Assembly: GCF_044647545.1 (NCBI RefSeq)
Contig: NZ_CP172818.1
From: Escherichia coli
GTDB taxonomy: Bacteria > Pseudomonadota > Gammaproteobacteria > Enterobacterales > Enterobacteriaceae
Strand: one strand, 5' to 3'
Length of the DNA stretch: 64,000 nt
The number at the start of each line of letters is the position of its first letter. Position 1 is the stretch's first letter. Both the position numbers and the translations under genes were made by a program. Of this stretch, positions 3,521 through 61,074 are shown one piece after another. Under the pieces are notes generated by a model that worked only from the letters and a program-made list of their open reading frames with translations, was not told where the DNA came from and did no database searches.

Positions 3521-3610
3521 GTAGGCCTGATAAGACGCTATGAGCGTCGCATCAGGCATCCTGCTCAAATGCCGGATGCGGCGTAAACGCCTTATCCTGC
3601 CTACAATGCG
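3521..3610. repeat. REP/BIME palindromic units in yiiM-cpxA spacer
   Basis: gcctgataagacgc...gcgtcgcatcaggc and gccggatgcggcgtaaacgccttatcc, typical REP sequences. Confidence 0.8.
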
Positions 3611-3614
3611 GAGT

Positions 3615-4988
3615 TTAACTCCGCTTATACAGCGGCAACCAAATCACCAGCCGTAAACCGCCCAGCGGGCTGTCTTCTGCTTTAACCCAGCCGCGATGCT
3701 GCTGAATGGCGGTTTCAACAATCGCCAGCCCCAAACCTGTACCGCCAGATTCACGATCGCGTGCTTCATCGGTACGATAGAACGGACGGAAAATCTGTTC
3801 GCGATCTTCCGGGCTAACGCCAGGACCATCGTCGTCCACCGTAATGGTGATACCGTCTTTATCTACCGCAAAGCCCACTTCAATCTTCGTATGGGAATAA
3901 CGCAGAGCATTACGAACAATGTTTTCCAGCGCACTTTCCAGGGCGTTCGGATTGCCGTACAGCGGCCACGGCCCAGGCGGGAAGTTAACTGTCAACGACT
4001 TGCCCATTTGCTCGGCTTCGAACGCCGCGTTATCCAGCACTTCACTCCACAACTGATTGGCTTTGATGGTCTCGCTAACCAGCGCGTTTTTTTGCTGATT
4101 ACGTGACATCACCAACAGGTCGTTAATCATGCTGTCCAGACGTTGCGCTTCGGTTTCAATACGCTCCAGTTCCTTGCTTTCACCGCTACGACGGCGCAGT
4201 AACGCCGTACCCAGTTGTAGACGCGTCAGCGGGGTGCGCAGCTCGTGAGAGATATCAGAAAGCAGACGCTGCTGAGAGGTCATCATGCGCTCCAGCGCGG
4301 TGACCATCTGGTTAAAACTGGCACCAGCGGCAAGGAATTCCTGTGGCCCCGCTTCAAGTTCCGGGTGCTGGCGTAAGTTTCCCTGGGCAACTTCATCGGC
4401 AGCGTTTTTCAGCTTACGCGCCGGTTTTGCCAGACTCCAGGCCAACCACAACAGAAGCGGCGTACTGACCAACATGGTGACAATCAGCAGTAATAGCGGG
4501 CGGTCAAACAGTAAGTTAATGAAATCGGATTGAGAACTGCTGGCCGGACGAATCAGATAAAGTTGGTAATTATCTTCGCCATCACGCACGGAGAACGGAC
4601 CGACCAGTTCCACGCGGCCATACTTTTTCTTCTGCGGATGATCGGCGTTATCGGCCTGACCAATAAAGTTACGAATGATCTGCATTTCGCTGCGTTCAGC
4701 GCCGATCACGCGGCCTTCGGTGGTCACCAATAACAAACGCTGTCCTGGCGGTGCCCACTTATCAATCGCCCGGAACAGACGCCGCCACCACATTAAATCA
4801 TTGGGCGGATCGTTCGCCAGCTCCGCTTCGACATGCTGCTCAATCATCAGACCCTGACGCTGTTCGCTATCCAGAAGCTCGGTCATCTGGCGTGAATCGA
4901 GCTTGGGTAACATCAAAACCAACATCAACACCAGCGCCAGCGTCAGCCAGAAGATGGCGAAGATGCGCGCGGTTAAGCTGCCTATCAT
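3615..4988 (-). CDS. cpxA: envelope-stress sensor histidine kinase CpxA
   Basis: 457-aa ORF MIGSLTARIFAIFWLTLALVLML... with HAMP/HisKA/HATPase sequence features. Confidence 0.97.
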   Translation of the reverse strand: MIGSLTARIFAIFWLTLALVLMLVLMLPKLDSRQMTELLDSEQRQGLMIEQHVEAELANDPPNDLMWWRRLFRAIDKWAPPGQRLLLVTTEGRVIGAERSEMQIIRNFIGQADNADHPQKKKYGRVELVGPFSVRDGEDNYQLYLIRPASSSQSDFINLLFDRPLLLLIVTMLVSTPLLLWLAWSLAKPARKLKNAADEVAQGNLRQHPELEAGPQEFLAAGASFNQMVTALERMMTSQQRLLSDISHELRTPLTRLQLGTALLRRRSGESKELERIETEAQRLDSMINDLLVMSRNQQKNALVSETIKANQLWSEVLDNAAFEAEQMGKSLTVNFPPGPWPLYGNPNALESALENIVRNALRYSHTKIEVGFAVDKDGITITVDDDGPGVSPEDREQIFRPFYRTDEARDRESGGTGLGLAIVETAIQQHRGWVKAEDSPLGGLRLVIWLPLYKRS

Positions 4989-5683
4989 GAAGCAGAAACC
5001 ATCAGATAGCCGCGACCACGCAAGGTTTTAAACCACGGGTGACCATCTTTACGATCCGGCAGTTTACGACGCAGGTTGGAAATGTGCATATCAATAGCGC
5101 GGTCGAAAGGCGTCAGGCGTTTGCCCAGCACTTCCTGGCTTAAATGCTCACGGGAAACCACCTGACCCAGATGCTGTGCCAGCAAATAGAGCAGGGTAAA
5201 CTCAGTGCCGGTTAACTCCAGCGTTTGCCCGTCGAAGCTGGCTTCCTGACGGCCTGGATTCAGCACTAAGGCATCAACTTCCAGTGTCGGTGAACCGTTG
5301 TCGTTGTTTTGCTGTTGCTCGCTCCAGTGCGAACGGCGCAGGATCGCGCGAATACGTGCCACCAGCTCACGATCATTAAACGGTTTCGGGAGATAGTCAT
5401 CTGCGCCCAGCTCAAGGCCGAGAACGCGATCAAGTTCACTGCCGCGCGCCGTCAACATAATGACAGGCGTCTGGTGTGTCTGGCGAAGTGCTTTTAATGT
5501 GTCGATACCATTTTTCTTCGGCATCATTACATCAAGCAAAAGTAAATCAATGCTGTCGTCCAGAAGATCAAGCGCCTGTTCCCCATCGTGGGCAACAATC
5601 ACGTTGAAGCCTTCCATCTCGAGCAGCTCCTTTAATAGGGAAGTCAGCTCTCGGTCATCATCAACTAACAGGATTTTATTCAT
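4985..5683 (-). CDS. cpxR: envelope-stress response regulator CpxR (OmpR family)
   Basis: 232-aa ORF MNKILLVDDDRELTSLLKELLEMEGFNV...; 4-bp overlap with cpxA start. Confidence 0.97.
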   Translation of the reverse strand: MNKILLVDDDRELTSLLKELLEMEGFNVIVAHDGEQALDLLDDSIDLLLLDVMMPKKNGIDTLKALRQTHQTPVIMLTARGSELDRVLGLELGADDYLPKPFNDRELVARIRAILRRSHWSEQQQNNDNGSPTLEVDALVLNPGRQEASFDGQTLELTGTEFTLLYLLAQHLGQVVSREHLSQEVLGKRLTPFDRAIDMHISNLRRKLPDRKDGHPWFKTLRGRGYLMVSAS

Positions 5684-5738: not shown

Positions 5739-5753
5739 TTTACGTTGTTTTAC
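5739..5753 (-). promoter_or_regulatory. CpxR box (GTAAA-N5-GTAAA) in cpxR/cpxP divergent promoter
   Basis: Reverse complement of tttacgttgttttac is GTAAAACAACGTAAA, matching the CpxR consensus. Confidence 0.75.
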
Positions 5754-5832
5754 ACCCCCTGACGCATGTTTGCAGCCTGAATCGTAAACTCTCTATCGTT
5801 GAATCGCGACAGAAAGATTTTGGGAGCAAATG

Positions 5833-6333
5833 ATGCGCATAGTTACCGCTGCCGTCATGGCCTCAACGCTGGCAGTCAGTTCATTAAGCCACGCTGCTGA
5901 AGTCGGTTCAGGCGATAACTGGCATCCGGGTGAAGAACTTACGCAGCGCAGTACGCAGAGCCATATGTTCGACGGCATAAGTTTAACCGAACATCAGCGT
6001 CAGCAGATGCGAGATCTTATGCAACAGGCCCGGCACGAACAGCCTCCTGTTAATGTTAGCGAACTGGAGACAATGCATCGCCTTGTCACCGCAGAAAATT
6101 TTGATGAAAACGCTGTGCGCGCACAGGCAGAAAAAATGGCGAATGAGCAAATTGCTCGTCAGGTTGAGATGGCAAAAGTCCGCAACCAAATGTATCGCCT
6201 GTTAACGCCGGAGCAGCAAGCGGTTTTAAACGAGAAACATCAACAACGAATGGAGCAGTTGCGCGACGTGACGCAATGGCAAAAAAGTTCATCGTTGAAG
6301 CTATTGAGTAGTAGCAACTCACGTTCCCAGTAG
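5833..6333 (+). CDS. cpxP: periplasmic Cpx pathway inhibitor/adaptor CpxP
   Basis: ORF 5830..6333; start at ATG 5833 ([24 protein letters not shown]...) gives 166 aa. Confidence 0.95.
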
Positions 6334-6336
6334 TAA

Positions 6337-6400
6337 ACCCTGTTTTCCTTGCCATAGACACCATCCCTGTCTTCCCCCACATGATGTGGGGGTTTTTTTT
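6337..6400 (+). ncRNA. cpxQ: candidate CpxQ sRNA (cpxP 3' UTR-derived)
   Basis: 3' UTR of cpxP ending in hairpin cccccacatgatgtggggg + T8; CpxQ is known to be processed from this UTR; exact 5' end not determinable here. Confidence 0.5.
6374..6400 (+). terminator. rho-independent terminator of cpxP
   Basis: Perfect hairpin cccccacat/atgtggggg followed by T8. Confidence 0.85.
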
Positions 6401-6481
6401 ATCCTCAATTTGCCTGCTGCTTAATGTATTGCAGATGATTTGCTTCCGTTATACTACCGTCAGTTGATAGCGGGAGTATTT

Positions 6482-8583: not shown

Positions 8584-8682
8584 GCCTGATGCGCTTCGCT
8601 TATCAGGCCTACATGAATTCTGCAATTTATTGAATTTGCAAACTTTTGTAGGCCGGATAAGGCGTTCGCGCCGCATCCGGCA
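8584..8682. repeat. REP palindromic units in pfkA-sbp spacer
   Basis: gcctgatgcgcttcgcttatcaggcctac and gtaggccggataaggcgttcgcgccgcatccggca. Confidence 0.8.
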
Positions 8683-60904: not shown

Positions 60905-60965
60905 GGGGATTGCAGATTAACAAAATGGCTTCCATCGCCGGGATTCAAAACTTTGGCAAAAAAAA

Positions 60966-61074
60966 GCGGATCCTGGAGATCCGCAAAAGTTCACGTTGGC
61001 TTTAGTTATTCGAGTTGAGAAACTCTCGAAACGGGCAGTGACTTCAAGGGTTAAAAGAGGTGCCGCTCCGTTTC
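60966..61074 (-). ncRNA. oxyS: OxyS oxidative-stress small RNA
   Basis: Reverse complement reads GAAACGGAGCGGCACCTCTTTTAACCCTTGAAGTCACTGCCCGTTTCGAGAGTTTCTCAACTCGAATAACTAAAGCCAACGTGAACTTTTGCGGATCTCCAGGATCCGC with terminator hairpin and U-run, matching OxyS as recalled. Confidence 0.9.

Follow-up and report, generated by a model that had tools for sequence, protein, structure and literature searches.

The stretch of DNA analyzed here (64 kb, from here on called the window) is part of an E. coli chromosome in which the genes follow one another in the order yiiM-cpxA-cpxR-cpxP-fieF-pfkA. The open reading frames of cpxA (3615..4988), which encodes a sensor histidine kinase of 457 amino acids, the same length as that encoded by b3911 in MG1655, and of cpxR (4985..5683), which encodes a response regulator of 232 amino acids (counterpart of b3912), are located on the minus strand. 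The open reading frame of cpxP (5833..6333; 166 amino acids; MG1655 annotation), with the stop codon TAG at 6331..6333, is located on the plus strand. None of the three proteins differs from its K-12 MG1655 counterpart in a single amino acid, and the cpxP gene differs from that of MG1655 in one nucleotide. When called mechanically, the cpxP reading frame begins at 5830 rather than at 5833 (tandem ATG ATG; 167 versus the annotated 166 amino acids), a choice of start that has no bearing on the findings described below.

The intergenic region between cpxR and cpxP contains on the minus strand, at 5739..5753, a direct repeat resembling a CpxR box (GTAAAACAACGTAAA). The consensus GTAAA-N5-GTAAA is what we take to be the established CpxR site, and a motif scan of the 64-kb window found the perfect motif at this position only. 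The CpxR box placed here by the initial annotation is real.

Searches of the window against Rfam at the gathering threshold revealed two REP-type repeat elements bordering the cpx-fieF-pfkA block, namely naRNA4 (CssrE) at 3524..3601 and ES036 (CssrF) at 8605..8646, both on the minus strand. They also revealed the OxyS sRNA at 60965..61074 (minus; 139.5 bits), the ClpQY (hslVU) promoter element at 22298..22355 (minus) and the L31 ribosomal-protein leader at 26967..27019 (plus), all three as expected for this region of the E. coli chromosome.

CpxQ and its terminator

The 3' UTR of cpxP comprises 67 nucleotides from 6334 to the last T, slightly more than the roughly 65 nucleotides after the stop codon given in the initial annotation, and it ends, as stated there, in a T8 terminator, the T8 extending exactly from 6393 to 6400. 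The T run is preceded by the inverted repeat CCCCCACAT (6374..6382) and ATGTGGGGG (6384..6392), a perfect 9+9 palindrome with a 1-nt spacer (G6383). This had been described as a perfect 9-bp hairpin. The palindrome is perfect indeed, but a stem of 9 bp is sterically impossible because only the single base G6383 lies between the two arms. RNAfold and a terminator scan agree on a stem of 8 bp (6374..6381 with 6385..6392), the 3-nt loop UGA and the U8 at 6393..6400. The intrinsic terminator thus delineated (6374..6400, plus strand) is likely also the 3' module to which Hfq binds; in the predicted fold the hairpin and the U8 are compatible with such a module.

CpxQ of E. coli K-12 and Salmonella Typhimurium was reportedly described in 2016, by Chao and Vogel and by Grabowicz and coworkers. 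In the RefSeq record of K-12 MG1655 the ncRNA gene cpxQ (b4716) has a length of 58 nt and starts 10 nt past the cpxP coding sequence, which corresponds to 6343..6400 on the plus strand of the window. Alignment of this 3'-UTR-derived sRNA with b4716 revealed identity in 57 of 58 positions, the lone mismatch being at 6384 in the terminator loop (A in the window, C in K-12), and alignment with the Salmonella sequence identity in all 58, the cpxP 3' UTR of Salmonella being 100% identical over 6336..6400. The cpxP 3' UTRs of Klebsiella and Citrobacter also match the window to 100%. The base at 6384 is the sole difference from K-12 CpxQ and is structurally neutral; A is found not only here and in Salmonella but also in Klebsiella and in the attP cores of the phages discussed below. 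Since its allele is identical to that of Salmonella, the CpxQ of the window equals in sequence the RNA that was used to establish the mechanism.

The positions of functional importance fit this assignment. Bianco et al. reported CpxQ to have 58 nt and constructed a C5G/C6G/U7A mutant (10.1101/271551), and Schilder and Görke reported that the first nucleotide of CpxQ is a U and that U7 pairs with nhaB (PMC10250213). Mutational data demonstrate base pairing of C5, C6 and U7 with cfa and nhaB (10.1101/271551, PMC10250213). With 6343 as position +1, a U is found at 6343 and C, C and U at 6347..6349, and the length to the last U is 58 nt. According to the review literature, CpxQ is cut out by RNase E close to the stop codon and depends on Hfq (PMC9438474), and the targets known are nhaB, skp, agp, ydjN, fimA and cfa (PMC9438474, PMC5736990).

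From the MG1655 coordinates and the landmarks U+1 and C5/C6/U7 we infer that G6342 and U6343 are the two bases flanking the RNase E cleavage site. The 9-nt spacer between the stop codon of cpxP and the 5' end of CpxQ is then UAAACCCUG (6334..6342). The sequence around the inferred cut, CCCUG-UUUU, is conserved in most Enterobacterales among the matches listed, and the U-rich UUUU lies 3' of the cut. The site CUG/UUUU differs from the RNase E consensus RN/WUU (10.1101/271551) in having a U at −2 where the consensus has a purine. A promoter scan found no sigma-70-like promoter inside the 3' end of cpxP.

The 58-nt RNA is predicted to fold with −17.4 kcal/mol (z = −2.7 versus shuffles) into a small hairpin and the terminator hairpin, with the 5' end left free. 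Unpaired in the minimum free energy fold is the 5' region 6343..6355 (UUUUCCUUGCCAU), which includes C5 C6 U7. The small hairpin predicted by RNAfold (6356..6372) has the stem AGACA/UGUCU (6356..6360 with 6368..6372) and the loop CCAUCCC. Its five pairs are invariant in the species comparison, among the matches listed, save for one A-U to G-U change, so that conservation speaks neither for nor against the pairing.

The initial annotation had described the cpxP 3' UTR as consistent with the CpxQ sRNA, which the two alignments and the published landmarks bear out, and had called the sequence apparently intact, naming divergence in the seed or terminator region as refuting evidence; in the alignments no such divergence was seen. 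It had bounded the feature at 6334 and 6400, of which the end is right, but the mature sRNA of 58 nt starts at 6343 and not at 6334. Judged by the alignments, the stretch behind cpxP is the already well-studied CpxQ, an assignment that is correct but ordinary, and the known facts about CpxQ itself are unchanged by the present analysis. For the window it means that the Cpx envelope-stress module, also annotated initially as complete, is so at the level of the sequence, with CpxA, CpxR and CpxP 100% identical to those of K-12, the CpxR box in place and the non-coding arm included.

Conservation in Enterobacterales

With the 67-nt UTR as query, 4,189 E. coli records matched at 99% identity or more and another 1,235 at 95–99%. 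The arrangement of cpxP, UTR and terminator recurs in 5,425 of the 5,426 complete genomes of E. coli and, downstream of a cpxP homologue, in at least 118 other species of the Enterobacterales; therefore the feature is not due to chance.

The other species come from a scan in which each species was represented by a single genome and the degenerate core CCTTGCCANNGNCN{2,5}TCCCTGTCT served as the pattern; it yielded at least 120 loci. The pattern fixes 19 of the first 30 positions of CpxQ, so that apparent conservation in this part is inflated and lost or diverged cores are invisible to the scan. Among the matches listed, 119 of 120 loci are real and belong to Enterobacteriaceae, Erwiniaceae, Yersiniaceae, Pectobacteriaceae, Hafniaceae, Morganellaceae and Budviciaceae-like taxa. 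The one in Pseudomonas sp. CFII64 (L075), which has neither a terminator nor a cpxP, is a chance match and was excluded. Plasmid-borne copies of cpxQ, which matches from Salmonella, "Pseudomonas sp. A2" and Citrobacter had seemed to indicate, were also excluded, since the sequences are pieces of chromosomes filed as plasmids. Several PLSDB "plasmid" records (L003, NZ_CP039131.1; L004, NZ_LN868945.1; L006, L007 and L008) are chromosomal fragments or whole chromosomes, and the 51-kb "Pseudomonas sp. A2 plasmid" carries a sodA-cpxAR-cpxP-fieF-pfkA region of the Klebsiella type.

At 114 loci among the matches listed a CpxP-like open reading frame precedes the UTR on the same strand, with about 38–98% amino acid identity to CpxP. 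The UTR is more conserved than this coding sequence: nucleotides 1–30 of CpxQ, 19 of them fixed by the pattern, are identical to those in the window in 112 of the 118 species among the matches listed, and the 5' region corresponding to 6343..6355 is invariant in 117 of them. The complete 58-mer of the window is the commonest exact CpxQ sequence among the species representatives listed (26 of 118). The terminators, on the other hand, come in 59 sequence versions, which between them use 28 different stems (118 sequences among the matches listed). When folded one by one, every version forms 5–9 G+C-rich pairs followed by at least six T; the mean z was −4.7, and only 12 of 11,800 shuffles folded equally well. 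Analysis of covariation with MAFFT and RNAalifold on 62 unique CpxQ sequences did not recover the terminator, the stems of unequal length being misregistered; all it yielded was the small hairpin, from whose invariant pairs nothing can be learned.

In Proteus mirabilis (L006, 2417..2565) the stop codon of cpxP lies approximately 84 nt before the 5' end of CpxQ, the spacer consisting of AGTA repeats rich in stop codons. Nucleotides 1–31 of its CpxQ are as in E. coli, but its terminator (GCCCCTC/GAGGGGC) has no sequence similarity to that of E. coli.

A hairpin followed by T8 is needed by any monocistronic gene, and the segment could accordingly be regarded as a mere 3' UTR with terminator that has no role as regulatory RNA. 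The conservation pattern is the opposite of that of a plain terminator, the 30 nt before the terminator being identical in the 112 of 118 listed species and the terminator varying freely. Moreover, the sequence is that of the experimentally characterized CpxQ, for which a stable 58-nt RNA and derepression upon mutation of the seed have already been published, both for K-12 and for Salmonella. We consider such a plain terminator very improbable. In the genomes compared, the seed part is constrained in sequence and the terminator in structure only, and since the seed sequence is fixed while the terminator sequence varies but always folds, the pattern bears the mark of an sRNA that acts by base pairing.

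The attachment site of P2-like phages

The 3' end of cpxQ has a second function. The 47 nt at 6357..6403 are identical to the attP core that is located next to the int gene in phage Wphi, and thus constitute the attB core of P2-like phages of the Wphi type. In the alignment with Wphi attP the core comprises nucleotides 15–58 of CpxQ plus ATC, that is the 3' two-thirds of cpxQ and 3 nt beyond. A circular 32-kb P2-like element carries the 3' 42–44 nt of CpxQ adjoining its integrase gene, 45 nt being identical. At least 55 phage records are 99% or more identical over the matched part, which in most among the matches listed is 44 nt long; P2-like phages carrying the core include Wphi, L-413C, fiAA91-ss and FSL SP-004. 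Alignment with K-12 revealed that the site in the window is empty.

How the site looks when occupied can be seen in the lysogen E. coli S9. Its attL consists of cpxP, an intact cpxQ and then an integrase gene directed at cpxQ. At its attR, the phage gene ogr, which has a terminator of its own, is followed by a phage arm, the 47-nt core and fieF. The uninterrupted junction is present in 4,591 of the 5,425 complete E. coli genomes and absent in 834 (15%), and in H101, a sampled genome with an interrupted junction, the break is exactly at 6357.

Among the approximately 100 species representatives with enough DNA downstream, 15 of the matches listed (L011, L017, L021, L024, L031, L037, L051, L060, L067, L083, L088, L097, L119, L127 and L130) have on the minus strand, directed at cpxQ, an integrase similar to that of Wphi (50–84% identity), 137–285 nt past the end of the match to the core pattern and approximately 110–260 nt beyond the terminator. 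Photorhabdus, Erwinia, Rosenbergiella and Acerihabitans are among them, and in these genera the terminators, and with them the att cores, are unlike that of E. coli. The presence of integrase genes at cpxQ in species with different terminators suggests that the cores are matched to the host. Apparently, P2-like phages use the 3' end of cpxQ across the Enterobacterales in this manner.

That phages integrate between cpxP and fieF has been known for long. In the genome of E. coli W, published in 2011, the insertion site of the P2-type prophage Wphi1 is listed as "cpxP-fieF" and the sites of the other P2-type prophages as "cyaR RNA" and "rybB ncRNA" (PMC3032704); the listing predates the description of CpxQ. 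The integration site of Wphi had also been identified previously (PMC3448106), and in Salmonella Infantis a 31.7-kb insertion between fieF and cpxP, the prophage ΦESI, has been reported (2026 preprint). In the titles and opening parts of abstracts of the papers listed that mention both CpxQ and prophages we found no statement that the att site overlaps cpxQ. From the alignment of the cores, the long-known "cpxP-fieF" integration site is the 3' two-thirds of cpxQ. Counting cyaR and rybB, three att sites of P2-type phages in E. coli thus coincide with genes of small RNAs.

One might now ask whether the sequence is conserved because it serves as attB, or because it has repeatedly been replaced by the att copies of phages, rather than because of a function of the sRNA. 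That dozens of P2-like phages have an attP core identical to 6357..6403 would favor this, as would the integrase found there in about 15% of the E. coli genomes and in 15 of about 100 species representatives among the matches listed. However, nucleotides 1–14 of CpxQ, which lie outside of the att core, are equally conserved; use as attB therefore does not explain the conservation of CpxQ. The site is empty in most genomes, and Photorhabdus, Proteus and Yersinia keep the seed part, yet differ in the terminator and thus in the att core. Because in these genera the seed is unchanged while the core differs, the phages appear to follow the host sequence and not the reverse. That phages account for the conservation has, in our estimate, hardly any probability.

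The 3' 44 nt of cpxQ, which every P2-like phage of the Wphi type carries as attP core, contain the small hairpin together with the CCAUCCCUGUCU region and the terminator, and their duplicate at attR is present in about one in seven E. coli genomes. The idea that the copy in attP or attR serves as 3' UTR and terminator of ogr is weakened by the finding that ogr has its own terminator and terminates upstream of the core. At the attL of E. coli S9 (L009, 3601..4767) the C-int operon is transcribed towards cpxQ, with no obvious terminator on the minus strand in between. It is conceivable that in lysogens antisense transcription from C-int reads through cpxQ and the 3' end of cpxP. Whether by transcription of the att copy or by such antisense RNA at attL, a feed of lysogeny into the Cpx regulon is pure conjecture, which we regard as improbable. 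If true, the product could be a truncated mimic of CpxQ, a sponge for Hfq or an antisense RNA, and the effect would be new.

Hrs1, the proposed mechanism and related RNAs

Rfam 15 has no family for CpxQ, and a search at the gathering threshold gives nothing at the locus. The best match in a permissive search was RF02628 (Hrs1), which scored 44.5 bits (E = 1.4e-7; gathering score 56.4) over 6328..6400 of the minus strand; other matches in the same search, such as those to NsiR1, RyhB and OmrA-B, are chance look-alikes of the terminator. Hrs1 of Erwinia amylovora was reportedly described by Zeng and Sundin in 2014. It is a 74-nt Hfq-regulated RNA whose gene has cpxP and fieF as neighbors and the same orientation as these two, and it ends in a rho-independent terminator (PMC4070566). 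With these properties of hrs1, Hrs1 is the Erwinia orthologue of CpxQ. The RF02628 consensus opens with A7 and then a hairpin, as a terminator does when written in reverse complement, and in Erwinia persicina and E. aphidicola (L058, 5697..5771; L059, 1298..1373) the model matches with 72.8–82.7 bits, above the gathering score, antisense to cpxP and cpxQ. Probably, RF02628 was modelled on the wrong strand. The sub-threshold score of E. coli CpxQ is explained by the strand of the model and its narrow seed of Erwinia sequences and not by a lack of homology.

A functional RNA encoded by the minus strand, which the Rfam model by its orientation and its matches here and in the two Erwinia species would imply, is the least probable of all, there being practically no chance for it when the model starts with the complement of a terminator, hrs1 itself is co-oriented with cpxP and fieF, no T run follows the hairpin on the minus strand of the window, and the K-12 annotation and all of the literature on CpxQ put the RNA on the strand of cpxP.

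In the RefSeq (PGAP) genomes of E. coli sampled, no feature is annotated under the match to cpxQ, and among the records inspected only the curated one of K-12 has the gene. The annotation pipelines skip cpxQ because Rfam lacks a CpxQ family and apparently has Hrs1 on the wrong strand. Automated annotation thus overlooks the non-coding arm of the Cpx response, a gap in Rfam that could easily be corrected.

It is almost certain that 6343..6400 is an intact copy of CpxQ, the RNA that in the literature is driven by Cpx and released by RNase E, and that 6357..6403 is at the same time an empty attB of the Wphi type. We propose the following mechanism, for which the sequence features are those of the window and the functions those given in the literature. 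Phosphorylated CpxR would bind to the box at 5739..5753 and drive the transcription of cpxP, which would stop at the hairpin and U8 of 6374..6400. RNase E would then cleave between G6342 and U6343, 9 nt past the stop codon, releasing an RNA with a 5'-monophosphate that should be protected by Hfq. The single-stranded 5' part with C5 C6 U7 and the conserved CCAUCCCUGUCU would pair with the mRNAs of nhaB, skp, agp, fimA, ydjN and cfa, which would thereby be repressed. CpxQ would thus represent the non-coding arm of the Cpx response to inner-membrane stress. Integration of a phage at 6357..6403 would rebuild an intact cpxQ at attL.

With CpxQ of K-12 and Salmonella the RNA of the window shares the locus, the strand, the length of 58 nt, the 5' end, the architecture of the terminator and the cpxAR-cpxP context. 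Hrs1 has in common with CpxQ the sequences CCUUGCCA and AUCCCUGUCU, the position between cpxP and fieF, the co-orientation and the terminator, but differs in being annotated with 74 nt and in having its Rfam model on the complementary strand. As attachment site, cpxQ resembles cyaR and rybB (P2-type phages), ssrA (Fels-2/SopEPhi) and tRNA genes (186/HP1), in all of which a small-RNA gene contributes its 3' part, terminator included, to the att core, and, as with the tRNA genes, integration restores the intact gene at attL, which is seen in E. coli S9. As an sRNA, CpxQ is like SdhX, NarS, GlnZ, SroC and processed MicL, the 5' ends of which are also generated by RNase E near a stop codon and which likewise have the terminator in common with the parent mRNA and depend on Hfq (PMC9438474). 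It is unlike these in its parent mRNA and its regulon: the source of CpxQ is monocistronic, and CpxQ is probably made without a promoter of its own.
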